Sequence record: PX418213.1 | Origin: a phage | DNA: 64,000 bases | Strand: one strand, 5' to 3' | Part shown: positions 3,271 to 58,542 of the stretch, piece by piece | How the letters are laid out: the number at the start of each line of letters is the position of its first letter | Position numbering within the stretch: the first letter of the stretch is position 1 | Made by a program: the position numbers and the translations under genes | The notes under the pieces: generated by a model | What the model was told of the DNA's origin: nothing | Seen by the model: the letters and a program-made list of their open reading frames with translations, nothing else | Databases searched by the model: none

Positions 3271-3313
3271 CCCGTACTCAAGACCAATGATAGCACCATC
3301 CGGAAAATTTTAC

Positions 3314-3342
3314 TTGCAGGATGCCCAAAATCTTGATATAAT
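3314..3342 (+). promoter_or_regulatory. sigma70-type promoter
   Basis: TTGCAG, 17 nt, TATAAT, in an AT-rich context. Confidence 0.4.
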
Positions 3343-3841
3343 ATTTATATTGAATTGAGAGACATTAGTAAAAATTGATTTTGCTAATTTTTCTTGTTTA
3401 CAATCCGCGATACGGAACAGTTAGGCTGCCCCATTAAGGGTTGTTTTAACTGTTACGTGTTAGTTTTTAAACAAATAATTAATAGAATACTTAGCGATCT
3501 ACATCCCGTAGGAACCCTGGTAAGGCCTCGAAGCAACCTAGTGTGAGGTGGTTGTGAAGTGAGACGGGAAGAGTGAAAAACTCTGAGAAGTGATGACGTA
3601 AGGTATACTACATCTAGTATGAGCTAGTACATGAAGCATTAGGTGAGCAAATCTGGCTTAGCGGCCATCCTCAAGGATTTGTGCGGTATAGTGAAGCGGC
3701 AGTGTAGCGTGAAAGGGGAAGTTGCCACCCCCCTTCAGTATTTGCGATTAATTTGTTGAGAAATTGACAGTAACAGTTGTTCTATTCTTTCTGAATAGTC
3801 CTAAAGAAAACTTATTTCATTTCCAACACAGGAGTATTGTT

Positions 3842-6628
3842 GTGTTCTCAATCCTACAAGGTCATGCAGGATTTCATCGCGATTTAGCCACAGGCAATTG
3901 GCGAGAAGTTAAAGCAGAAGACTATCTTTTTGCTAAAAGATTTTCCTCAAAGCATCCTGAAGGTAAACCAGCTTCAATGCCCTTCAAGTTTGATGTAATT
4001 GATGAAGTTGATCCTCAAACCCTAGTAGAAATGCTTCCTCTTATGAGACGTTTAACGTCTGACCCTCATATCGTTGCGGTACGAGGTCGATGTCTTGCAC
4101 CTAAAAATAATGTGCGACGTAAGAAGGGCAACTTTAATATATCTAACCCAAGTCATATAATTGCAATGGACGTGGATGGTATTGTAGATACAGGTGGTTG
4201 TAACAAGTTTGATCTTGTTGGCATGGCTCGACATATTATTAGAATGTTAAATAGTATTAGTGAGGATATGTTTCCTCTTGATGCAGGGTTTATTGCTCAT
4301 GCATCGTCTTCGGCTGGACTAAAACCAGGTATCCGAATGCACTTAATACTAGAATCTAATGTTAAAGTAACTCAGGGTCAAATCAAATTCTTATTTACAT
4401 CTATCAACGAAAGTAGTAGACAAAAGTATGGCTTTGATATTGCCGACTTAGCCTATTACTCTTCCGTACAGCTCCATTACTTTGCAGATCCGTTATTTAT
4501 CGATGGTATAGTAGATCCGTTTAAAGCGGAGGGTGCTTCACGTCTGGTATTTGTTAAGGGTTCTAAAGTAAATTTACCCAATAATCTGGTTGACTATGAA
4601 ACAACTAGGGGTGAGTTTAAAGAGGAGTTTTACTCTTTACTCGATCAAATTAAAGGTAAAAAAGCTGCCTCTGATAAAGTAGAGGAAACTATCAGCGAAC
4701 TAGAAGAAGCTGAGGATGGAGTGTATCTACGTATCATACCTAAACTCTATCACAGAGCTTTAGAGGATGGTGTTGACTTTGCATGGCTAGAAAAAGAAAT
4801 CCGTCCAGCCTTATCAGAGTATATTGCAACTAAAGATAATAGTCGTAATATTCAAGATTACTTTAATAACGGTCGTAAACAGGCTCTGAAAGCATTTGTT
4901 AATAATTCTAAACGTGATATACCGGATGTTTTAAAAGGTATTCCACTTAAAAAACTAGAAACTAATTCTCTAGAAACTGATAACTTCTTGAAATTAAATA
5001 CTGTACCACCAGAAGGTTATATGACTTTTGTAAAAGCAAGTCTAGGTACAGGTAAAACTACAGCGGTTGTGCGTTGGTTAGACTCAGGAGTTATTAAAGG
5101 TAATTTCTTAGCAATTACCAATACTAGAGCGCTAGTATCTTCAAATGCTAAGAAATTTAGTGCAGGACAATATGATAAGTCTGTAGATATGCTTAATTTT
5201 AAGCGTGGTGCTATTGACCGTATGTCCACAACTATTCACTCTTTGCATAAGTTCAAGAGTTTTATTGGTCAAATTGATGCAATCTTTATCGATGAATGTG
5301 ATGCTGTAATGAATGACCTATTATTCGCCCCGGTTGTTAAACAACGTCGTGAATGTATTCAGGTTCTTCGAGACATTCTTGCAACTGCAAAAATCATTAT
5401 ATTATCTGATGGGGATATTAGTGCAGAAACAATTGAAGCATATGGTTCTTTGATTGAGTTTGATAAACCGGTTGCATTTTATAATCATCACCGTAAAATG
5501 CTATCAAAAGCTCATGCTTATGAGTTCCCGGATGAATCCAGTATTTGGGTTGCACTTCAGACTTCTCTAGAGATGGGTGAGAAATCTATCCTAGTATCTG
5601 ACTGTGGGCCGGATGAACTGAATGAGAAGGGCATGGCATTACGTCGTAATACGGGTGCGTTAGTTAAGGAAATCCACTCAAACTCTACGTCTGATGTAGA
5701 TATTCGACGTATTCTGGATTACACAACTAATGAGCTAATTGATCAACAAATTGATTGCTTATTATGTAGTCCATCGGTAACAAGTGGTGTTGACTTTAAC
5801 TACTTTGATAACGTATTCGTTATTACTAGAACCTCAAACCAAGCGCCAAACATGCGTTTCCAAGCAATCAGGCGCGACCGTGGTGCTCAGAACATTTATT
5901 ATTTTATTGATAAATCTACGAGTGGGTTCTCCGCAGGTTCTGAGCAATATAACATTGATGAAGGTTGGCTGGAGTTAGCACAGCAATTATACGCACGTCG
6001 CAGGGAGCTGGAATCTAGAAACTATACTAGTACTCTACGTTATTACTTGCTTGATCAGGGTGCAACTATTGATATTTTCAGTGAAAGCTGGGGAAATATC
6101 GAAGGTGCAGGAAAAGAGTATACGGAAGAGCGAATCAAAGCTATTTTGTATTCAACTCCTGATTATTGTGCTCCACGCCATGCAGATGCGTATGAAGCTA
6201 AACTACTTCTTGTTCGCTATTACCATCTTGAGTCTATTAAAGATGTAACAGTTGAGCATGTTGAACAATATATCAAAGATAAACCGAATGATCGAGCTGC
6301 ATTCTTCCATAAGATGCACGAGATGTTCTGGGAAGATATTAAGAAGTGTTCAAATGTCACTATCAAACCCTTTATAGAAGCTCTGAAAGGTAAGAAGAAA
6401 GATTTCTTCCTTAAAACAGGTCAGAGTGCTAACCCAAAATATGCGAGAATGTATCTTGGTATGATGGGTATTGGCAAGGATATGAACACGGAGAATATTG
6501 TAGACTGGTACAGAACCTATTGTAAAATCGAGTGTATGCCAATCCCCCTAAAATTCATGACAGAGGAAGAGAAGGCCATGGCAGAAGAAGTAATGTCCGA
6601 ACTTGGAGCAACCAATGAAGATACATAA
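3842..6628 (+). CDS. large helicase-domain protein (possible replication initiator or origin-binding helicase)
   Basis: Walker A ASLGTGKTT and DExD-like box IFIDECDAV; start refined to in-frame GTG 3842 preceded by AGGAG at 7-nt spacing (ORF track starts at 3764). Confidence 0.5.
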   Translation: MFSILQGHAGFHRDLATGNWREVKAEDYLFAKRFSSKHPEGKPASMPFKFDVIDEVDPQTLVEMLPLMRRLTSDPHIVAVRGRCLAPKNNVRRKKGNFNISNPSHIIAMDVDGIVDTGGCNKFDLVGMARHIIRMLNSISEDMFPLDAGFIAHASSSAGLKPGIRMHLILESNVKVTQGQIKFLFTSINESSRQKYGFDIADLAYYSSVQLHYFADPLFIDGIVDPFKAEGASRLVFVKGSKVNLPNNLVDYETTRGEFKEEFYSLLDQIKGKKAASDKVEETISELEEAEDGVYLRIIPKLYHRALEDGVDFAWLEKEIRPALSEYIATKDNSRNIQDYFNNGRKQALKAFVNNSKRDIPDVLKGIPLKKLETNSLETDNFLKLNTVPPEGYMTFVKASLGTGKTTAVVRWLDSGVIKGNFLAITNTRALVSSNAKKFSAGQYDKSVDMLNFKRGAIDRMSTTIHSLHKFKSFIGQIDAIFIDECDAVMNDLLFAPVVKQRRECIQVLRDILATAKIIILSDGDISAETIEAYGSLIEFDKPVAFYNHHRKMLSKAHAYEFPDESSIWVALQTSLEMGEKSILVSDCGPDELNEKGMALRRNTGALVKEIHSNSTSDVDIRRILDYTTNELIDQQIDCLLCSPSVTSGVDFNYFDNVFVITRTSNQAPNMRFQAIRRDRGAQNIYYFIDKSTSGFSAGSEQYNIDEGWLELAQQLYARRRELESRNYTSTLRYYLLDQGATIDIFSESWGNIEGAGKEYTEERIKAILYSTPDYCAPRHADAYEAKLLLVRYYHLESIKDVTVEHVEQYIKDKPNDRAAFFHKMHEMFWEDIKKCSNVTIKPFIEALKGKKKDFFLKTGQSANPKYARMYLGMMGIGKDMNTENIVDWYRTYCKIECMPIPLKFMTEEEKAMAEEVMSELGATNEDT

Positions 6629-8367: not shown

Positions 8368-8384
8368 CTACAGAAAAATTTCAG

Positions 8385-8412
8385 TTGCTTAATCCTATAA
8401 TTCTTGATATAA
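8385..8412 (+). promoter_or_regulatory. sigma70 promoter
   Basis: TTGCTT, 16 nt, TATAAT, upstream of 8471. Confidence 0.5.
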
Positions 8413-8470
8413 TATTCTCATAGTTTGAAAGAACTATTCTGTTTAATTCTTAATTAAGGAAATATAAAAT

Positions 8471-8917: not shown

Positions 8918-9214
8918 ATGACCAAAGCTGAAATTATCGCACAATGTGAAAAATTTGGTGAGTTTTATCTTCATTACGAGAAACTTCGTCAGAAAGGAAC
9001 CACGTACCTTCAGGGTACGATGGAATTTGATCCAGCCCAAGATAAATATCTGGCTGAGCGTATTAAACGTGAACGTATTCGTAAAGCGAAAGATGATGAG
9101 ATCCTTGTCTTCTCTCGTACTAATGATAGCTTCCGTTTTATTCCTGTCGAGAAAGTCCGTCGTGTGACTAGCCTCCAATCAGAGTTAGATCGTGCTTCTC
9201 CAGTAGGCCGATAA
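8918..9214 (+). CDS. hypothetical protein (98 aa)
   Basis: ORF track; AAGGAA upstream; terminator downstream. Confidence 0.45.
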   Translation: MTKAEIIAQCEKFGEFYLHYEKLRQKGTTYLQGTMEFDPAQDKYLAERIKRERIRKAKDDEILVFSRTNDSFRFIPVEKVRRVTSLQSELDRASPVGR

Positions 9215-9224
9215 GAAACCAATT

Positions 9225-9246
9225 AGCCCCTATATGGGGCTTTTTG
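9225..9246 (+). terminator. rho-independent terminator
   Basis: Stem agcccc / ggggct, loop tatat, then TTTTT. Confidence 0.6.
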
Positions 9247-9264
9247 TGTATTTGGGATAAGTAA

Positions 9265-9573
9265 ATGAGCGAACAGGTAAATCAAAACTATGAAGGACAC
9301 GTTGATGACCAGTCCATCATACTCTGGGAGAAGGAGGGAGAACAAATAAGATTAACAGTATCTGAATTTCGTGGGAATCTATACATGGGTATTCGTTACT
9401 GGCTTCTTGATATTAATGATGAATGGTTTCCAACGAAATCTGGCTTCTCTTTTCCTTACACCCTAGAAACAACATCACAGCTTTTCTATGCGTTTACACA
9501 GATTCTTAGCGAATCTGAGGTTTTACATGAAGTACAGAAACGAGCTGAAGAACTCAAAGCCAAGAATGCCTAG
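9265..9573 (+). CDS. hypothetical protein (102 aa)
   Basis: ORF track; flanked by terminators. Confidence 0.45.
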   Translation: MSEQVNQNYEGHVDDQSIILWEKEGEQIRLTVSEFRGNLYMGIRYWLLDINDEWFPTKSGFSFPYTLETTSQLFYAFTQILSESEVLHEVQKRAEELKAKNA

Positions 9574-9590
9574 TTCTTGGCTTTTTCTTT
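9559..9590 (+). terminator. rho-independent terminator
   Basis: Stem gccaaga / tcttggc followed by tttttcttt. Confidence 0.6.
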
Positions 9591-9600
9591 ATAAATGTAT

Positions 9601-9629
9601 TTGCTTTCAACTCAGTTTTGTTATATAAT
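9601..9629 (+). promoter_or_regulatory. sigma70 promoter, N25 type
   Basis: TTGCTT, 17 nt, TATAAT; downstream leader gagagggttgcaaaGTG. Confidence 0.55.
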
Positions 9630-9659
9630 ATTTATATAAATTAATGAGAGGGTTGCAAA

Positions 9660-9932
9660 GTGAAAAAGATAAATATAAGTACACTTAAACCTTTCCCATA
9701 TATCGGACAGCCTCTTATACTTATGTGGGAGGAGAAGATTAATGGAGAAAAGTATTCTAAAATTAGAAGTGGGTATAAGCTGATTTCACTTCATTACGAA
9801 AAAGAAATATTAACAGCTGAAATATACTCTCCATTGTCAGATAGGCTAGTAAAAACCACGTATTTGCATCTCTGCAAAAATTTTACATGGCACGGATCCA
9901 CTAGACAGCCCACGTACTATGAGGCAGAATAA
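9660..9932 (+). CDS. hypothetical protein (90 aa, GTG start)
   Basis: ORF track; stop overlaps the ligase start (TAAATG). Confidence 0.4.
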   Translation: MKKINISTLKPFPYIGQPLILMWEEKINGEKYSKIRSGYKLISLHYEKEILTAEIYSPLSDRLVKTTYLHLCKNFTWHGSTRQPTYYEAE

Positions 9933-10904
9933 ATGACTAATATAAAAGACTTTATTAAACGTTGTCAAGAAGCGTATTACCAGGGAATGTCTTTAATCTC
10001 TGACGAAGAATATGATCGTCTGATTAAAAGATTTCCGTTAGAAGAAGAGATTGGCCCTAAGGGCGATATTCCACATCTGTATCGTATGTATTCTTTACAG
10101 AAAGTTTATTATAATCGTGGAGATAAACCCCCATTTAACCCATTAGGTCAGGTAGAAACTGACAAGTTAGATGGTTGTGCGATTTCTCTATTATATATTA
10201 ATGGCGAATTTGTTCAAGCGCTAACTCGTGGTAATGGCATTTTAGGGAATGATGTCACAAGCAACGTAAGATTGCTGAATATCCCTGAAAAGATTTCCCA
10301 AAAAGTACCTACTCAAATCACTGGTGAAGTTCTAATTACAAAAGAAGTAGAAAATAAACGTAACTTTGCCTCTGGTGCTATTAACCTCAAAGATAGCGAT
10401 GATTTCGTACAACGTATCGGGGAAGGTGGTTTAATCTTCGTTGCATACGGTATCCAGTGTTCTGCTGAATCTGTAGGTATTACAGAATCGTATTTAAAAG
10501 ATATGCTCTGGCTAGAGAATGAAGATTTCTTAACAGTTGTTAATGTGCGTTCCTTCTTTAAATGGATTCCGACGGACGGTAAAGTTGTTCGTATTAATGA
10601 CAACAACAAATTCTTCCGAGAAGGCTGGACTAATAAATTCCCTCGTGGGGCATTCGCTATTAAAGAGGATGAAGAAGGCGAGATTACAACTCTTACTAAA
10701 GTTGAATGGCAGGTAGGGGCTTCTGGTAAAGTAACTCCAGTTGGTTATTTCGAACCGGTAATTATTGATGATGCTACAATTGTTAAAGCGACTCTTAATA
10801 ACGTTGATTATATTAACTCTCTTGATCTAGAGATCGGTTGCCAGATTCGAGTGATTCGTGCTGGTGGTGTAATCCCGTGCATAGTAGAGCGAGTATACGA
10901 TTAA
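9933..10904 (+). CDS. NAD-dependent DNA ligase, N-terminal adenylation-domain ORF
   Basis: Adenylation lysine motif DKLDGCAISL (KxDG); ends with a stop well before the Zn-finger/HhH/BRCT part. Confidence 0.7.
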   Translation: MTNIKDFIKRCQEAYYQGMSLISDEEYDRLIKRFPLEEEIGPKGDIPHLYRMYSLQKVYYNRGDKPPFNPLGQVETDKLDGCAISLLYINGEFVQALTRGNGILGNDVTSNVRLLNIPEKISQKVPTQITGEVLITKEVENKRNFASGAINLKDSDDFVQRIGEGGLIFVAYGIQCSAESVGITESYLKDMLWLENEDFLTVVNVRSFFKWIPTDGKVVRINDNNKFFREGWTNKFPRGAFAIKEDEEGEITTLTKVEWQVGASGKVTPVGYFEPVIIDDATIVKATLNNVDYINSLDLEIGCQIRVIRAGGVIPCIVERVYD

Positions 10905-11047
10905 TACATAACCCTTTGCTACCCATCTACCATATCGGAATTATAAAGTGGTTATTGACATTTTCGCCGCTTAGGTATATACTATTATCATTCAGTTGAG
11001 GGATAGAAAGTTATGGCGAGGGTAAGCAAAGTTAGTTAAAATTGTAG

Positions 11048-11076
11048 TTGCTAAATGCTTAAATACTTGCTATAAT
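11048..11076 (+). promoter_or_regulatory. sigma70 promoter inside the ligase intergenic gap
   Basis: TTGCTA, 17 nt, TATAAT; a second candidate with TTGACA lies at 10955-10983. Confidence 0.5.
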
Positions 11077-11106
11077 ATTTATATAAATTGATAAGGAAGA
11101 AATTTG

Positions 11107-11886
11107 ATGAAAATCGAAATTCCAACACAATGTCCCTCTTGTGGTTCTAAGCTAGATCTTGTCAACGGACAATTATTCTGTCGGAATAAGTCCAACTGTC
11201 CAGCGCAATCAAGTAAGTTAATTGAGAACTTCTGTTCAAAAATGAAGTTAAAGGGCTTTGGCCCAAAAACTATTGAGAAGCTGGAGCTGACGAAGATTTC
11301 AGAACTATTTTACCTAACCGAAGAAGATTTGGTTAGAGCCGTGGGTAGCAAGGTTGCCGCTAAGTTAATTAGCGAATTAAATACTAAAGTTCGCGGAGAC
11401 ATTGACTTTGGTTCAGTTCTCGGTTCTTTAGGAATCCCTCTAATTGGAGAGGTTGCAGCAAAGAAATTATCCCAAAATTGCACTAGCTTCCACGATGTGA
11501 AGGCTGACGGCAAGGCTGGAGAAAACTATAAAGCCTGGCTAAATTCCCCACAAGGCAAGGATGTTATCGAACTACCGTGGAAATTCTCAACTGGTATTAA
11601 GGGCACTAAAGCTAATATTATCATTACGGATGAATTAGTTGCCCGGCCAAATGGAATCACGGTATGTATTACCGGATCTTTGCAAGATTTTGCAAATAGA
11701 ACGGATGCAACAAACTATTTAGAAAGTCTAGGATATACGGTTAAGAAATCCGTTACCAAAGACGTTAAATACCTAATCTGTGAGGATGAATCAAAACGTT
11801 CTTCCTCATCTTATAAGAAAGCCGAAACGAATGGGATAGAAATCCTGTCGATTAAAGAACTATTGGAGAAAAATAATAATGTCTAA
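11107..11886 (+). CDS. NAD-dependent DNA ligase, C-terminal ORF (Zn finger, HhH, BRCT-like)
   Basis: CPSCGSKLD...CRNKSNC zinc-finger pattern; BRCT-like ITGSLQDF segment; ATG 11107 preceded by AAGGAAGA. Confidence 0.6.
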   Translation: MKIEIPTQCPSCGSKLDLVNGQLFCRNKSNCPAQSSKLIENFCSKMKLKGFGPKTIEKLELTKISELFYLTEEDLVRAVGSKVAAKLISELNTKVRGDIDFGSVLGSLGIPLIGEVAAKKLSQNCTSFHDVKADGKAGENYKAWLNSPQGKDVIELPWKFSTGIKGTKANIIITDELVARPNGITVCITGSLQDFANRTDATNYLESLGYTVKKSVTKDVKYLICEDESKRSSSSYKKAETNGIEILSIKELLEKNNNV

Positions 11887-12646
11887 ACTGAACTGGAACG
11901 TAGAAGGTGTAACCGAGTCTCTGAAAGCAAAAGCCACTGCTCTGGGTGTTGCTGTAATCTCTCAAGAACAAGTAGCTGCTATCGCTGCTGAACTGGCCGC
12001 TGAAACTGGCAAAGATGTTACTGCTCGCTCTGTTGGCTCTAAACTGCGTAAAGAAGGTTTTGAAGTACAGAAAGCTAACGAAGTACAGAAATCCCCGTGG
12101 ACTCCTGAGCAGGAAGCTGAACTGGTTGATTTCCTGAACGCTCATGCTGGTCAGTATACCTATGCTGAGATCGCTGCTGCTGTAGCTGGTGGTCAGTTCG
12201 GTGCTAAACAGGTACAGGGTAAGATTCTGAGTCTGGAAATGACCGCTTCTGTTAAACCAACCGAAAAAGCTGCTGCTGTTCGTTCCTTCACTCCGGATGA
12301 AGAAACTGATTTTGTTAATCAGGTTGTTGCTGGTGCTACTATTGAAGCTATCGCTGCTCACTTCGGTCGCAATATTAAGCAGATCCGCGGTAAAGCTCTG
12401 AGTCTGCTTCGTGAAGGTCGTATCGCTGCTATGCCAGTACAGGAAACTTCAAGTGCTAAAACTCGTGAAGATCTGTTAGAAGGTCTGGATCTGGTTAACA
12501 TGACTGTTGCTGAGATCGCTGAGAAAACTGGTAAGTCTGAGCGCGGTGTTAAATCTATGCTGTCTCGTCGTGGTCTGGTTGCTAAGGACTATGATGGTGC
12601 CGCTAAGCGTGCTAAACTGGATGCAAAAGCTGCGGCTGCTGAATAA
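11879..12646 (+). CDS. putative DNA-binding protein with four tandem HTH-like repeats
   Basis: Four internal repeats of the form (T/Y)xAEIAxxxGxxxxxVxxKxLSL..G; host-optimal codon usage suggests high expression. Confidence 0.4.
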   Translation: MSKLNWNVEGVTESLKAKATALGVAVISQEQVAAIAAELAAETGKDVTARSVGSKLRKEGFEVQKANEVQKSPWTPEQEAELVDFLNAHAGQYTYAEIAAAVAGGQFGAKQVQGKILSLEMTASVKPTEKAAAVRSFTPDEETDFVNQVVAGATIEAIAAHFGRNIKQIRGKALSLLREGRIAAMPVQETSSAKTREDLLEGLDLVNMTVAEIAEKTGKSERGVKSMLSRRGLVAKDYDGAAKRAKLDAKAAAAE

Positions 12647-12663
12647 TCTGGTAAATTAAACCT

Positions 12664-12697
12664 AAGGGGAGGGGGCTATGCTCCTTCCCCTTTTTGC
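12664..12697 (+). terminator. rho-independent terminator
   Basis: 12-bp stem (two G-U pairs) aaggggaggggg / ctccttcccctt followed by TTT. Confidence 0.55.
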
Positions 12698-12728
12698 ATT
12701 TAGAAGGCACGAAAGCGTGCAAAGGAGA

Positions 12729-14201
12729 ATGACCTTGTTTAACGTGCAAGCTGTAGTGTTGAAGATGCTTCTAGCTTCCGAACAGAAGCAAATAGCATTG
12801 GAAACATTCTCAAAACTGCATAAAGATCATTTTAATGACGCTTTCTCCTCAATTTACCAAGCCGTCCAGAATTATTATAAAAAATATAACACAATGCCGT
12901 CCATTGACGCACTTATGCTTGAAGCTAATAGGAACGCCCGCCTTTCTCAAGCTCTAGTCGTCTTAGCTAACACTCAAATTCCAGAAGTGAGCATGGAACA
13001 GGCACTTGAAGTCCTAGAAGCCGAATATACACAGGATTTATTCCTGAAGCTTCTAGAAACAGACGTGCTTCAAGATTTAACAATGCTGGATCAGGGAGAA
13101 ATTCTCAACCGAGTTGCCTCCCTTCACTTAAAATTAGAAGAGAAAGTAACGAATACTGGAAAAGTATTCAACGCAGATAACATGCGTATTTTCCAGAGAG
13201 AAGAAGATACCAAACTGAACTTAATCGCTCTTGGTATTTGTAATGAGTTCGACGCTCAAATTGGTTTAGCTCGCACAGAAACGTTACTGCTTGGTGGTTG
13301 GCGTGGTACTGGTAAATCCATTATCTGTTCAAACATACAGGTTCAGCAATATTTGAATGGGGATATTGCTCCATACTTCTCAATTGAGATGAAAGAACAT
13401 GAGGTATTTAGACGTAATCTAGCCATGTTAGCTGGTGTATCAGCATTAGCAATGCGTAATAATACTCTAGAAGGTGCAGCTCTGTTGAGATTAGCCAGAA
13501 CTAGAGCTAGAATGTTTAATGGTGGTGAAGAGCTTTTCGATAACTTCGTTAAACAGTACACAATGGCTAAGATGAGTGATTTCTACGATATGGAGAGTAA
13601 GCTAATAGAAGGATATGAGCTACATACTCCTATGATTATTGTTTATGACCCTGAGCTGTCTATTACAACAGTTGACGTAGAATTAAATAAATTAGTTGCT
13701 AGATATGGTGATAAAGTTACAGTAGCTTTACTGGACTATATTAACCAAACCCGACTTCCAGACTCTAAAACCATTGATATGTATGACTGGAAAGAACAGA
13801 TGGTTGTCAGCTCGTCTTTCAAATCTATCTGCCAGAAACATAACGTGGCTGGTGTAGCTCCTTACCAGATCGATCAAGATGGTAGAACACGTATGTCAAA
13901 GGGGATTCTTGATTCCGCAGACATGGCTGCTAATCTTAATGCTGCAAAAGCTGATAATGGTCAAGGTGCTATTATGTTTGACTTCGTTAAGACTCGTTCT
14001 TCTGATAGCGTGAAGTTTATGCCTAAAATGAACTGGGAAACTCTGCGAATGGATAACACTACCAACCTAGCAATGGAAGATATATCTCAAATGGAAGCTG
14101 AGTTCGTTATCCCTATTGAGAAGGATAAGCCGGCTCAACCTAAACGTGCTAAGAAAGACAAAACTGAAAATTCAACAGGTGAACAGGCCAGCGATATATG
14201 A
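12729..14201 (+). CDS. DnaB-like replicative helicase
   Basis: Walker A GGWRGTGKS in the C-terminal RecA-like domain; ORF track start 12678 lies inside the upstream terminator, so ATG 12729 (or in-frame TTG 12735 with better AAGGAG spacing) is more likely. Confidence 0.6.
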   Translation: MTLFNVQAVVLKMLLASEQKQIALETFSKLHKDHFNDAFSSIYQAVQNYYKKYNTMPSIDALMLEANRNARLSQALVVLANTQIPEVSMEQALEVLEAEYTQDLFLKLLETDVLQDLTMLDQGEILNRVASLHLKLEEKVTNTGKVFNADNMRIFQREEDTKLNLIALGICNEFDAQIGLARTETLLLGGWRGTGKSIICSNIQVQQYLNGDIAPYFSIEMKEHEVFRRNLAMLAGVSALAMRNNTLEGAALLRLARTRARMFNGGEELFDNFVKQYTMAKMSDFYDMESKLIEGYELHTPMIIVYDPELSITTVDVELNKLVARYGDKVTVALLDYINQTRLPDSKTIDMYDWKEQMVVSSSFKSICQKHNVAGVAPYQIDQDGRTRMSKGILDSADMAANLNAAKADNGQGAIMFDFVKTRSSDSVKFMPKMNWETLRMDNTTNLAMEDISQMEAEFVIPIEKDKPAQPKRAKKDKTENSTGEQASDI

Positions 14202-15088
14202 GTAGAATAACAGAACTACTTGATCTGAAAGGCATTGAATATAAAGACACAGGTGGGGACATCCTCATCTGTTGTCTCAATCCAGATCATGACGATAAAC
14301 ACCCAAGTTTGCGTATTGATCCTGAAACAGGTATTATGCACTGCTTGAGTTGTGGCTTCGGTAAAGGTATACCGAGCATTTACCATTATTTTAATGAGAC
14401 TCAGTACCGACAGTCCCCAAGACTATCGCAGGTACGCAAAAAGATTTCAGAGATTAGGAATGGATCAACGAATCTTGCAATTCCTGAATCTGCTTACCTT
14501 TTCGAAGGTGATTTCCGAGGTATAAGTTCTAAGACCTTGAAGAAATATTTTGCTTTCCAACACCAAGCAGACTGGGAAGGCAGAATTGTATTCCCAATCA
14601 CAGATGCTGTTGGACGCAATATCCTATTTTTGGGTCGTTCTATAAACAGTTCTGCCCCTCCTAAATACTTAGTAAAACCAAAACAAGTTTCACCACCTAT
14701 TTTCCCTGTACGATATAATACTCCAGTTCTTATTCTAGTTGAAGGTATCTTTGATATGCTGAACCTAGAGGATAATGGTATAGACTATGCTTCTTGCTGC
14801 TTTGGTACACATCAGTTTACTTCGGATAACATTGCAGATAAGTTCAGCCCTTATATTATTGCTGGTGTAAAAGTTGTTGTTATCTTACTAGATAATGATG
14901 CTTCTGGTAATAAGGCTGCACAAGCATTGGCCAAATTAATTCGCACAAAAACGCGTTTAACACCTGTAGTTGCTAACTTTCTCCTGCCTGAAGGCAAAGA
15001 TCCGGGTGATTTAAACAAAGATGAAATTGATATGTTAGCAAAACGTATTGAAATTTTAGTTGCTGAATCGCTTAAAGATTTGGTATAA
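14198..15088 (+). CDS. DnaG-like DNA primase (zinc-binding plus TOPRIM)
   Basis: CCLNPDHDDKHPSL...HCLSCGFG zinc-binding motif; TOPRIM residues LVEG and LDNDASG; ATG overlaps the helicase stop (ATGA). Confidence 0.65.
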   Translation: MSRITELLDLKGIEYKDTGGDILICCLNPDHDDKHPSLRIDPETGIMHCLSCGFGKGIPSIYHYFNETQYRQSPRLSQVRKKISEIRNGSTNLAIPESAYLFEGDFRGISSKTLKKYFAFQHQADWEGRIVFPITDAVGRNILFLGRSINSSAPPKYLVKPKQVSPPIFPVRYNTPVLILVEGIFDMLNLEDNGIDYASCCFGTHQFTSDNIADKFSPYIIAGVKVVVILLDNDASGNKAAQALAKLIRTKTRLTPVVANFLLPEGKDPGDLNKDEIDMLAKRIEILVAESLKDLV

Positions 15089-15150
15089 TATATTGGTAAG
15101 TTAGAGAAGAAACACTGAAGTTATACTTACTTACCAAGAGGAGATTAAAT

Positions 15151-18208: not shown

Positions 18209-19557
18209 AGGTTGTTATATCTAATAAAGCCTATTTCAAGCCCGATGATGAACTTTGGGATTATTGTAGTAAGCAAACCACTTATCACATAGAGACAATG
18301 ACTAGTAAATACCCTATTATGTATAAGAATAGTGGTGTTGTTGCTAAAGAGATTAAGTGGATTCCTATCACGCGTCTGGATTTACTAGATGCTAAAGGAG
18401 TAAAATACGAATTAGTAGATAAACGTACATTAGCTCCGGTAGATATACCAAAACCTAAGTTCAAGCTGCGTGAAGAAGACCAGCTCCCAATATATGAAGA
18501 GTGCGATGATACTTGTATTATTAATGGTAAGCCTGGATTTGGTAAAACTATCCTAGCCCTTGCACTTGCGTATAAATTTGGCCAGAAAACTCTGGTAATA
18601 TGTACGAATACATCCATTCGTGAGATGTGGGCAGCAGAAGTTCGTAAATGGTTTGGGTTTGAGCCTGGTATCATAGGTTCTGGGAAATATAACATTGATC
18701 CACCAATTGTGGTCAGTAATATTCAAACAGTGAATAAACATGCGAATAATCTTTCTAAAGTATTCGGTACTGTTATAGTTGATGAAGTTCATCATTGTGT
18801 GGCTACAACTTTCACTAACTTCCTAGAAATATCATGTGCTCGCTATAAGATTGGACTATCCGGTACATTAAAACGAAAAGATGGTCTACAAGTTATGTTC
18901 AAAGATTTCTTTGGATATAAGATCTTTAGCCCACCGGTTAATAATACTGTTGCACCTACAATCCATAGGTACTCCGTGCCTGTTGAGTTATCAGGAAACC
19001 AAAACGTACCATGGGCATTACGTGCTAATGATGTGTACAATCATCCTGAGTATCGAGAGACTATTATAAACCTGGCACACTTATACGTGAATATGGGGCA
19101 TAAAGTACTCATTGTAAGTGACAGAACAGAGTTAATCCAAACAGTACTAGAAGCTCTTGCACAGCGTGGTGTTACAACATATGAAATTATAGGGGCAACC
19201 CACTTAGATGACCGATTAAAAATCCAGGAAGATATAGCAAAAGGTGGACCTTGTGTACTTGCAGCAGCTCAAAGTATCTTCTCTGAAGGTATTTCTCTTA
19301 ATGAGTTGTCTTGTTTAATAATGGGAAGTCTTATTAATAATGAGTCTCTCATTGAACAGCTTGCAGGACGTGTTCAACGTATTGTCGATGGTAAACTCGA
19401 CCCTATTGTTGTAGATCTAATCATGAAAGGTGGCACTGGACTAAGACAGGCTTCTGGACGTATGGCAGTATATCGTAACAATGGGTGGAAAACTATTACC
19501 ATGACTCCGGAGAAAGCAGTTCAATTAGCTAAAATTGCATTTGGCAACAGCTCATAA
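18205..19557 (+). CDS. SF2 DNA helicase
   Basis: Walker A GKPGFGKT, DEVH box VDEVHHC, C-terminal helicase motifs QLAGRVQR. Confidence 0.7.
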   Translation: MKVVISNKAYFKPDDELWDYCSKQTTYHIETMTSKYPIMYKNSGVVAKEIKWIPITRLDLLDAKGVKYELVDKRTLAPVDIPKPKFKLREEDQLPIYEECDDTCIINGKPGFGKTILALALAYKFGQKTLVICTNTSIREMWAAEVRKWFGFEPGIIGSGKYNIDPPIVVSNIQTVNKHANNLSKVFGTVIVDEVHHCVATTFTNFLEISCARYKIGLSGTLKRKDGLQVMFKDFFGYKIFSPPVNNTVAPTIHRYSVPVELSGNQNVPWALRANDVYNHPEYRETIINLAHLYVNMGHKVLIVSDRTELIQTVLEALAQRGVTTYEIIGATHLDDRLKIQEDIAKGGPCVLAAAQSIFSEGISLNELSCLIMGSLINNESLIEQLAGRVQRIVDGKLDPIVVDLIMKGGTGLRQASGRMAVYRNNGWKTITMTPEKAVQLAKIAFGNSS

Positions 19558-19569
19558 ATGATGTATAAT
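19541..19569 (+). promoter_or_regulatory. sigma70 promoter
   Basis: TTGGCA, 17 nt, TATAAT. Confidence 0.45.
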
Positions 19570-19640
19570 ATATACATAAATTTGAGAGAGAAAGTTTCGG
19601 ATTGATAAGAAAGTCCGAAGCAGAAAAATAAAAATTTTAG

Positions 19641-19670
19641 TTGCTAAATTCTCTCGAAATCTAGTATAAT
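19641..19670 (+). promoter_or_regulatory. sigma70 promoter
   Basis: TTGCTA, 18 nt, TATAAT; leader cataaattcgaggag. Confidence 0.5.
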
Positions 19671-19777
19671 ATATACATAAATTCGAGGAGAAAACAAAAA
19701 TTAAATTCTTCGATTATGAAAAGCTATACTTACTAGCTAGAGGAAATTCCGACCTAATTATTAAGTTATTCAAAAGA

Positions 19778-58290: not shown

Positions 58291-58542
58291 TTATAAAACG
58301 GCTTCCCATTTTTCGTTGCGTTGAACAACCTTTACAACGTCGCCGGATTTAACGCGAACGTTATAAATCGGCTTGCCGTTGTTACTGCGCTCATTTTCAG
58401 CGTATACCGCGTCGATTGTATCGAACGGCATGAGCGCCGCGCCTTTAATACGTTCGGCTTTTCCGGTCAATTCATCCGTTTTAGTAACGAAAGGAATAAA
58501 AACGGATTGACCAACTTTCGGCGCATTAATAACGTTTTTCAT
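58291..58542 (-). CDS. hypothetical small protein (83 aa)
   Basis: ORF track; first gene of the minus-strand pre-early-like unit. Confidence 0.4.
   Translation of the reverse strand: MKNVINAPKVGQSVFIPFVTKTDELTGKAERIKGAALMPFDTIDAVYAENERSNNGKPIYNVRVKSGDVVKVVQRNEKWEAVL

Follow-up and report, generated by a model that had tools for sequence, protein, structure and literature searches.

The ligase locus of this T5-like phage (Tequintavirus; sequence record PX418213.1) very probably encodes an NAD+-dependent DNA ligase that is naturally split into a heterodimer, its subunits specified by two neighbouring genes on the plus strand of the 64,000-nucleotide stretch that was analysed (hereafter the window). 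The upstream gene, ligA (9933..10904), encodes a protein of 323 aa (36.5 kDa, pI 4.9) with a short domain Ia, a nucleotidyltransferase domain carrying K78 in a KLDG motif, and an OB fold. The downstream gene, ligB (11107..11886), encodes 259 aa (28.4 kDa, pI 8.8) with a Cys4 zinc finger (C9, C12, C25, C31) followed by HhH and BRCT domains, of which the HhH is shortened. A first-pass annotation made from the sequence had read the region as an NAD-dependent ligase in two ORFs, the first ending at 10904 and the second starting at 11107; the ORF list recovers both on the plus strand at exactly these positions, and Pfam matches and alignments agree with the reading. Its label for the first ORF, an adenylation domain, is right as far as it goes but incomplete, as a short domain Ia and a complete OB fold are also there, while its zinc-finger/HhH/BRCT description of the second holds, with four cysteines aligned, the BRCT matched and the HhH region alignable. 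Of the two outcomes that it offered, a two-subunit ligase or a disrupted gene, the first is favoured by domain tiling, selection, the split in 70 of 70 loci and the heterodimer of Providencia phage PR1, and the second falls away. The arrangement itself is already known: ligA/ligB and the promoters P-K28b/a are annotated in T5, and the PR1 relative has been structurally characterised.

LigA matches PF01653 (E 2.6e-23) and the OB-fold family PF03120 (E 3.6e-22; residues 252-321, aligning to residues 284-390 of Escherichia coli LigA) and belongs with phrog_3359 (E 5e-176). LigB matches phrog_3498 (E 7e-137) and, through its BRCT domain, PF00533 (E 9.7e-9); Pfam hits to its HhH domain (HHH_2, HHH_5) are weak and under gathering cut-offs, and this region aligns to E. 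coli residues 433-545 with a 12-residue deletion, within an overall coverage by LigB of residues 402-666. On the TIGR00575 profile LigA spans positions 3-378 and LigB 388-651, and on phrog_3869 the corresponding spans are 9-381 and 388-654. As judged from these alignments, the two proteins tile a full-length LigA with no domain absent, and the concern of the first-pass annotation that essential ligase domains might be missing from both ORFs is not borne out. The alignment to a full-length LigA that it had proposed confirms the OB fold and sets LigA D323 at about E. coli residue 393 and LigB M1 at about residue 400, placing the break in the linker between OB fold and zinc finger, a position that is constant across 23 lineages. 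The halves score 175 and 110 bits against TIGR00575, each below the equivalog cut-off of 444 bits; the LigA family is defined on one polypeptide and two ORFs are found here, making the pair a split variant of that family.

The catalytic motifs can be followed residue by residue. K78 of the K-L-D-G motif corresponds to E. coli K115, E132 to E173, D215 to D285 and K244 to K314, and throughout the clade an arginine (R220) takes the place of the motif IV lysine of E. coli (K290). Nine LigA positions (K78, D80, G81, R99, E132, R143, D215, R220 and K244) are invariant in 23 representative pairs, as are the four zinc-finger cysteines of LigB, whose E. coli equivalents are C408, C411, C426 and C432. 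In the shortened domain Ia of LigA, Y15, Y16, D24, Y27 and D28 align with the NMN-binding residues Y22, H23, D32, Y35 and D36 of E. coli; four of the five are identical, with Y16 replacing H23. Within the 23 pairs D28 is invariant and Y16, D24 and Y27 are conservatively kept, and Y15 and Y27 are invariant in a 51-sequence alignment. The NMN-binding residues of domain Ia mark the use of NAD+ rather than ATP, and their retention points to NAD+ as the cofactor. Kinetics may differ from those of LigA, given the substitutions K290 to R220 and H23 to Tyr and the shortened HhH domain.

Matches to the locus were found in 447 phage records at 80-98% identity, with subunits A and B annotated, the closest match over the whole ligase locus being Escherichia phage HK6 (98%). 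Among the best 120 LigA clusters (99-47% identity), all members are 310-337 aa long save one partial record of 240 aa. Wherever both genes were found (70 of 70 loci, down to 39% identity), ligA precedes ligB in the same orientation and no fusion of the two occurs, with gaps ranging from 37 to 1556 bp. The 202-bp gap of the window occurs in 13 distinct variants, and the split is kept in all of them. Purifying selection on both genes is strong (dN/dS 0.055-0.125 for ligA and 0.063-0.113 for ligB), and the pairwise identities of LigA and LigB are closely correlated (r = 0.93). In relatives the junction is a hot spot for insertions and holds GIY-YIG, NADAR, DprA-like and T5orf172 genes; Salmonella phages RUS_R2 and SP3 have a GIY-YIG ORF after ligA. 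The additional ~190 bp in phA11/phC11, considered as an insertion in the gap, was rejected as such and is a small ORF upstream of ligA.

PDB entries 9HU3 and 9I5I are both titled 'PR1 phage heterodimeric DNA ligase in complex with 21-mer nicked DNA', and their chains are homologous to the window pair at 52-55% identity (9hu3_A against LigA, E 1e-103; 9hu3_B against LigB, E 2e-80). Chain B is 100% identical to LigB of Providencia phage PR1, and an AF2 model of the window's LigA (pLDDT 88.6) aligns to 9hu3_A/9i5i_A with TM scores of 0.83-0.86. From this level of identity and fold similarity we infer that the window pair likewise forms a physical heterodimer on nicked DNA; the titles of the PDB entries, together with homology, also suggest activity, NAD+ dependence and affinity between the subunits.

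Immediately upstream of ligA lies a 90-aa ORF of unknown function (9660..9932, plus strand; phrog_35018, E 8.7e-48), which is not part of the ligase and is probably co-transcribed with ligA, since no nucleotide separates its stop codon from the ligA ATG. A putative promoter of the T5 early type, predicted from sequence (TTGCTT-17-TATAAT, 9601..9629, plus strand), would drive both; its -10 element and downstream part resemble P-K28a, a 'putative promoter' is also marked upstream of ligA in the T5 record, and a terminator-like hairpin (9556..9584) stands just before it. At the other end, a gene whose product is a D5-like DNA-binding protein or transcription factor (11879..12646, plus strand) overlaps the end of ligB by 8 nt, and these two genes therefore form one transcription unit, which a terminator-like hairpin at 12664..12692 (plus strand; a 13-bp stem followed by a T run) would close. 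A TTG at 11104 is also open as a ligB start, but ATG 11107 is the likely one, because homologues including PDB chain 9hu3_B begin with MKI and a Shine-Dalgarno sequence, AAGGAAG (11093..11099, plus strand), lies 7 nt upstream.

The intergenic gap (10905..11106, plus strand) is 202 bp long and has stops in all three frames. The first-pass annotation had described a gap of some 200 bp with two sigma70-like promoters and with no intron-like or endonuclease ORF, and on each of these points it was accurate. The first promoter, P-K28b, has a core of TTGACA-17-TATACT at 10955..10983 (plus strand; 11 of 12 consensus positions), within a T5 feature that maps to 10935..11009; the second, P-K28a, has a core of TTGCTA-17-TGnTATAAT at 11048..11076 (plus strand; 10 of 12, with an extended -10), within a feature that maps to 11028..11102. 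Both names are taken from the GenBank annotation of T5 (AY692264; 58311-58385 for P-K 28b and 58404-58478 for P-K 28a), to which the window is 100% identical over positions 10850-11160, 311 bp that include the whole gap. P-K28a is a member of a repeated family of T5 early promoters and resembles other such promoters in the window. Promoter-like sites across the surrounding 4 kb (9000-13000) show no excess over shuffled sequence (10 against 9.2), and it is identity to annotated T5 promoters, together with conservation of the hexamers across genera, that puts both gap sites beyond chance: the -35 and -10 hexamers are kept in five genera, whereas their flanks have diverged. Relative to one related locus (L010), positions 10935-11106 show a single difference, against pS values of 0.18-0.39 in the flanking genes. 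All 31 representative loci have an equivalent promoter no more than 100 nt upstream of ligB, as against 12% of random windows, these loci being phylogenetically related and hence not independent samples; in most of the 31, the -10 element of the ligB-proximal promoter ends about 24-31 nt before the ATG. Searches of the region for other features returned no terminator-like site after ligA in the window, no Rfam match between 10700 and 11300 at E <= 1, no significant RNA fold in the gap (z = -0.78, unstructured), no endonuclease or other family-matched ORF within the gap, and no direct repeats or target-site duplication flanking it, the repeat search recovering one weak 14-nt inverted pair.

As we read them from the sequence, the activity and assembly of the pair, its promoter use and its stoichiometry would be as follows. 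LigA would perform the chemistry, adenylylating itself on K78 from NAD+, passing AMP to the 5'-phosphate of the nick and sealing it, while LigB would supply the zinc finger, HhH and BRCT domains that in one-piece LigA complete the clamp round the nicked duplex. The two chains would assemble non-covalently on DNA and rebuild the architecture of LigA, the break falling in the flexible linker between OB fold and zinc finger, with no interaction tail gained by either chain. The enzyme would probably act on Okazaki fragments and on the site-specific nicks that T5-type genomes typically carry. Transcription of ligA would begin at the promoter near 9601-9629 and, as no terminator follows ligA, would run on into ligB; P-K28b and P-K28a, as strong early promoters, would provide extra transcripts of ligB and the D5-like gene, with ligB translated from its own Shine-Dalgarno sequence and ATG.

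We considered whether the two products might instead be largely independent, with LigA acting as a minimal ligase and LigB as a DNA-binding or BRCT scaffold in replication, expressed with D5 and DnaB. Other virus families do have minimal ligases of the NTase-OB type; ligB, with a conserved promoter of its own, stands first in a unit with the D5-like gene, and the extra promoters may put LigB in excess over LigA. Against this, the genes are adjacent in the same order in all 70 loci and co-evolve (the correlation given above), the two PR1 proteins were solved as one complex with nicked DNA, and LigA truncated before its zinc finger and HhH domains is reported to adenylylate itself without sealing nicks. 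We consider independence improbable, and a moonlighting role of LigB possible.

A second alternative holds that an insertion broke a ligase gene and that the ORFs are its decaying remnants, with the host LigA doing the work and the fragments functionless. Coding sequence is indeed interrupted here by non-coding DNA, relatives carry inserted genes at the junction, a GIY-YIG endonuclease among them, and unsplit orthologues exist. Decay is nevertheless hard to reconcile with dN/dS values of 0.05-0.13 in both halves, with catalytic and zinc-binding residues that are invariant over 23 lineages down to ~40% identity, with both ORFs being intact in 70 of 70 loci, or with a PR1 homologue solved as a heterodimer on nicked DNA; selection and conservation effectively refute this explanation, which we regard as very unlikely.

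Equally unlikely is that recoding or splicing yields a single polypeptide after all, for instance by way of a split intein, an intron or translational bypassing. Phages are indeed able to express interrupted genes by such routes, translational bypassing in T4 gene 60 being one case. Fractured genes with split inteins are described in PMC2677866. At this locus, however, the gap yields neither an intron match in Rfam nor a significant RNA structure, a Pfam scan found no intein/Hint domain in LigA or LigB, and neither chain has extra residues at its junction end. ligB has a Shine-Dalgarno sequence and ATG of its own, the gaps of relatives (37-1556 bp) are able to hold whole genes, and in the PDB entries the subunits are distinct chains, of which chain B begins at MKI. 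That the true gene is a single ORF broken by a sequencing or assembly error is a general possibility, compatible with the +1 offset of the ligB frame from that of ligA, but we assign it a negligible probability: every frame of the 202-bp gap holds 5-7 more stops past the ligA stop, so that no single-base correction could produce the fusion of the ORFs that the first-pass annotation had envisaged, the same arrangement recurs in hundreds of independently sequenced phages, and all 13 variants of the 202-bp gap keep the split.

The heterodimeric reading leaves the history of the split to be considered. Compact one-piece ligases of 555-578 aa are encoded by uncultured T5-like phages (P0226, P0229, P0151, P0173 and others; loci L074-L078), share their compact domain arrangement with the split pair and align with full-length LigA at 35-42% identity. 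Their syntenic position is also that of the pair, with a PC4-like gene or T5 A2 upstream and the D5-like gene, DnaB, primase and PolA downstream, and carry a linker of 8-20 residues in place of the stop, gap and start of split forms; no promoter-like site was found at the L074 junction. In neighbour-joining trees of either half, some one-piece forms, P0226 most strongly, fall inside the split group, so that repeated splitting of the ligase, or its re-fusion, at the same linker between OB fold and zinc finger is possible. These trees gave no support to monophyly among split forms, and hence none to a single ancient split. Every split locus examined, even one with a 37-bp gap, has a sigma70 promoter directly upstream of ligB, and the break therefore coincides with an operon boundary, which would let LigB be expressed with the D5-like gene, perhaps in excess over LigA. 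We tentatively suggest, as a possibility more doubtful than the heterodimer itself, that the split state is evolutionarily labile and tied to transcription, its junction acting as a landing site where accessory and mobile genes insert. Our literature search, which did not reach the PR1 ligase paper, found no description of this pattern. The locus offers a clean natural case in which a multidomain enzyme has been divided at the linker between two domains and would still work as two chains, and bears on how T5-type phages seal genome nicks and Okazaki fragments with NAD+; its one-piece orthologues, promoter at the break and insertion hot spot may help studies of gene fission and fusion in phages.

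A comparable case is nrdA of Aeromonas phage Aeh1, which the homing endonuclease mobE divides into two ORFs; their products come together again without covalent linkage, and new tail sequences created by the insertion are essential for this assembly (PMC3045599). The likeness lies in an enzyme gene divided between two ORFs and in a mobile endonuclease at the split site, as in some relatives of the ligase locus. In contrast to Aeh1 nrdA, the ligase chains have no extra tails, and the gap in the window carries promoters instead of an endonuclease gene. With one-piece E. coli LigA (PDB 2OWO; TIGR00575), the phage pair shares the domain order Ia, NTase, OB, zinc finger, HhH and BRCT, as well as the KxDG lysine, motifs III to V, the four zinc cysteines and the NMN-binding residues of domain Ia, K290 (Arg in the phage) and H23 (Tyr) being the exceptions; it differs in consisting of two polypeptides that are ~90 residues shorter in total, with deletions in the Ia, NTase and HhH domains. 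Despite the shared name, the LigB paralogue of E. coli and the phage LigB subunit are unrelated.

Among the closest systems are T5 and PR1. T5 ligA/ligB (T5p114, AAU05253, and T5p115, AAU05254; AY692264) represent the same locus, with LigA 98% and LigB 97% identical to the window, a gap likewise of 202 bp and 100% identical, and the same gene order (PC4-like gene, ligA, ligB, D5-like gene, dnaB), whereas the 90-aa ORF found upstream of ligA in the window is absent from T5 st0. The A and B subunits have been treated as the T5-type ligase (PMC4319617, PMC3632103), and a literature search for T5 ligase biochemistry found only genome papers that name the subunits. Providencia phage vB_PreS_PR1 has the two-chain architecture, break point and neighbouring genes of the window, and a promoter-bearing gap of 192 bp. 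Unlike the window, PR1 has a terminator-like hairpin after ligA, and its record annotates one promoter where our alignment shows both to be conserved.

The two ligase ORFs lie on the same (+) strand where the first-pass annotation had placed them, ligA at 9933..10904 (323 aa) and ligB at 11107..11886 (259 aa), separated by an intergenic gap of 202 bp (10905..11106). A TTG at 11104 is also in the open frame of ligB; the ATG at 11107 is the likelier start, being preceded at 7 nt by AAGGAAG, and its MKI... start is common to homologues and to PDB chain 9hu3_B. The first ORF had been read as the adenylation domain, which is present (PF01653), but not alone, as LigA also carries a complete OB fold (PF03120). 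The Zn-finger/HhH/BRCT reading of the second ORF held, with a BRCT domain, weak HhH matches and four Zn cysteines (C9, C12, C25 and C31). Because the full-length profiles TIGR00575 (positions 3-378 by LigA, 388-651 by LigB) and phrog_3869 (9-381 by LigA, 388-654 by LigB) are covered by both proteins together, the pair tiles the whole enzyme, and no essential ligase domain is missing from both. LigA is acidic (pI 4.9) and LigB basic (pI 8.8).

Alignment with E. coli LigA placed D323 of LigA at approximately residue 393 and M1 of LigB at approximately residue 400, so that the break falls in the linker between OB fold and Zn finger. LigA residues K78 (KxDG), E132, D215 and K244 correspond to K115, E173, D285 and K314, and the domain Ia residues Y22, H23, D32, Y35 and D36 to Y15, Y16, D24, Y27 and D28, the counterpart of H23 being tyrosine in most A subunits. 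E. coli LigA is ~90 residues longer, the phage enzyme having lost parts of its Ia, NTase and HhH domains, and the E. coli motif IV lysine K290 is replaced by arginine in the phage (R220, codon 10590..10592), as in 23 of 23 representative pairs and all 51 aligned A subunits.

A two-subunit ligase is established for the homologue from Providencia phage vB_PreS_PR1, 52-55% identical to the window proteins, because the PDB titles name a heterodimeric ligase on nicked DNA. Entries 9HU3 and 9I5I match LigA with chain A (E 1e-103) and LigB with chain B (E 2e-80), the latter being 100% identical to PR1 LigB; one is titled 'PR1 phage heterodimeric DNA ligase in complex with 21-mer nicked DNA containing phage nick sequence' (released 2026-01-14), and the other bears the same title with '(random sequence)' (released 2026-02-18). 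Modelled with AlphaFold (pLDDT 88.6), the window LigA matched their chains with TM 0.83-0.86. Both genes are under purifying constraint, with dN/dS of 0.055-0.125 for ligA and 0.063-0.113 for ligB among relatives near enough to estimate dS. Across 23 representative pairs (100% to ~40% identity) the catalytic residues and four Zn cysteines are invariant and the chain ends at a constant position; pairwise identities of LigA and LigB are correlated (r = 0.93). The best 120 clusters matching LigA (99-47% identity) are 310-337 aa, except one partial 240-aa record, and are therefore A-only proteins. In 70 two-gene loci, drawn from an IMG/VR scan with LigB alignment and from annotated phage loci, ligA precedes ligB in the same orientation in all 70 and is fused to it in none, with gaps of 37 to 1556 bp (202 bp in 30 Tequintavirus loci). 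Tiling, selection, the universal split in these loci and the PR1 heterodimer thus support the two-subunit interpretation offered at first pass.

Besides its part in the ligase, LigB might have an independent extra role. That the locus is a disrupted pseudogene was rejected given the low dN/dS and the invariant catalytic residues and cysteines. Nor is the split an artefact: it recurs in 70/70 loci, ligB is in the +1 frame relative to ligA and, since 5-7 stop codons follow the ligA stop in each of three frames of the 202-bp gap, the ORFs are not fusable by any simple sequencing correction. Recoding or splicing was likewise rejected, as the gap returned zero Rfam matches and its RNA folding was not unusual (z = -0.78), consistent with the earlier view that it holds no intron-like element; no repeats were found flanking it. 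An 8-codon mini-ORF (MARVSKVS, 11013..11039) lies between the two gap promoters; it is probably due to chance, because a Klebsiella-phage relative (L032) lacks its ATG.

The two sigma70-like promoters proposed for the gap were recovered by consensus scan on the + strand at 10955..10983 (TTGACA-17-TATACT) and 11048..11076 (TTGCTA-17-TGnTATAAT), and match 'promoter P-K 28b' (10935..11009) and 'promoter P-K 28a' (11028..11102) of the phage T5 record AY692264. By itself the scan is weak evidence, since the surrounding 4 kb held 10 promoter-like matches vs 9.2 in shuffles. P-K28a is one of a repeated set of T5 early promoters, of which the window has similar 45-55-nt copies at 3304-3358, 8375-8416, 15048-15091, 19525-19582 and 19631-19683, with an A/T-rich stretch ahead of TTGCTn, 17 nt of spacer before TGnTATAAT, and ATAAATT downstream. 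A putative T5p111 counterpart follows the copy at 8375; at this place the T5 record has 'P-N 26'. The hexamers of both promoters are identical throughout 13 variants of the 202-bp gap, and are kept between divergent flanks in Tequintavirus, a Klebsiella phage group, L033, L034 and PR1. In 31/31 representative split loci the 100 nt before ligB contain a site matching at least 9 of 12 positions, vs 12% of random windows, and one matching at least 10 of 12 occurs in 77% vs 2.9%, although these loci are related and hence non-independent samples; in most, even with a gap as short as 37 bp, the -10 ends ~24-31 nt before the ligB ATG.

The ligA gene seems to be served by a separate promoter (9601-9629), downstream of a terminator-like hairpin. 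The consensus scan found no terminator-like site in the gap, and none follows ligA in the window, so that ligB could be reached by read-through from ligA and would be transcribed from both gap promoters as well. LigB and the D5-like gene would form one unit closed by a hairpin at 12664-12692; their 8-nt overlap (11879..11886; ATGTCTAA) suggests that ligB is translationally coupled to this downstream DNA-binding protein gene. Against close relatives L010 and L029, ligA is far more diverged than ligB (dS 0.54 vs 0.20 and 0.90 vs 0.33; protein identity 83% vs 94% for L029), and the promoter region between them is nearly invariant (one difference from L010 over 10935-11106, whereas synonymous sites of the flanking genes differ by 18-39%), suggesting a recombination boundary at the gap.

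The ligA-ligB junction holds inserted genes in relatives. In Salmonella phage vB_Sen_SG_WM_RUS_R2 (L002) a 213-aa GIY-YIG ORF (3465..4106; PF01541, E 1.9e-5) stands straight after the ligA stop, upstream of both promoters, and resembles a free-standing homing endonuclease gene located where the ligase is split; L031, putatively Salmonella phage SP3, has a GIY-YIG ORF there too, in the same 794-bp gap. A putative Proteus phage Stubb locus (L072) carries a NADAR-domain gene there (~5190..5809; PF08719, E 1.6e-31), a curious find of an NAD/ADP-ribose-related enzyme inside an NAD-dependent ligase locus. Vibrio phage Pontus (L003, 4469..5687), L037 (putatively Vibrio phage pVp-1) and L038 have three genes there, a DprA-like one (phrog_768, E 5.5e-49) besides small ORFs, and marine contigs L053, L058, L060, L062 and L069 have 3-7 small ORFs, the last, just before ligB, with a T5orf172 domain. 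The region upstream of ligA is variable too, because the 90-aa ORF there (9660..9932; phrog_35018, function not assigned), whose stop abuts the ligA start, is replaced in T5 st0 by an 88-bp 'putative promoter' region and other relatives have a distinct 66-aa ORF (L002 2308..2508; L004 834..1034).

A full-library LigB search gave ~98 stand-alone B-type clusters among its best 150, and also 10 compact ligases in one piece (555-578 aa), which align with full-length LigA through their N-terminal halves at 35-42% identity; P0258 (594 aa), in the same length band, matches LigA more weakly (26%). For four of the 10, the source contigs show T5-like synteny, with a PC4-like gene or T5 A2 upstream and D5-like, DnaB, primase and PolA genes downstream. 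The 557-568-aa ligases of uncultured T5-like contigs L074 (6001..7674), L075 (5001..6701), L076 (3734..5434), L077 (2151..3857) and L078 (4875..6563) occupy the syntenic slot of the split pair and are apparently its unsplit orthologues. One-piece forms have an 8-20-residue linker where split forms break, and no promoter-like site was found at the L074 junction. In bootstrapped neighbour-joining trees, a crude method, compact split and one-piece forms formed a clade against longer LigA proteins (197/200 bootstraps) with seven one-piece forms basal; P0226 fell among split forms for each half separately (94-100% of bootstraps), and P0229 and P0151 were also placed among them, a pattern hinting that fission happened more than once or that a split pair was fused again.

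The ligase region is shared with 447 phage records (80-98% identity), in some of which the ligase is written 'NDP-dependent'; the D5-like gene is mislabelled 'portal vertex protein' in the phiLLS record, and 'tail tape measure protein' stands under the locus match in vB_Kpn_3. Window 10850-11160 is 100% identical to T5 AY692264, which names ligA (T5p114) and ligB (T5p115), and genome papers regard the A and B subunits as a T5-type ligase (PMC3632103, PMC4319617). The split ligase is thus already known, from the T5 annotation with its named promoters and from a relative's heterodimer solved on nicked DNA; only the comparative pattern of junction insertions, one-piece orthologues and tree placement might be new.
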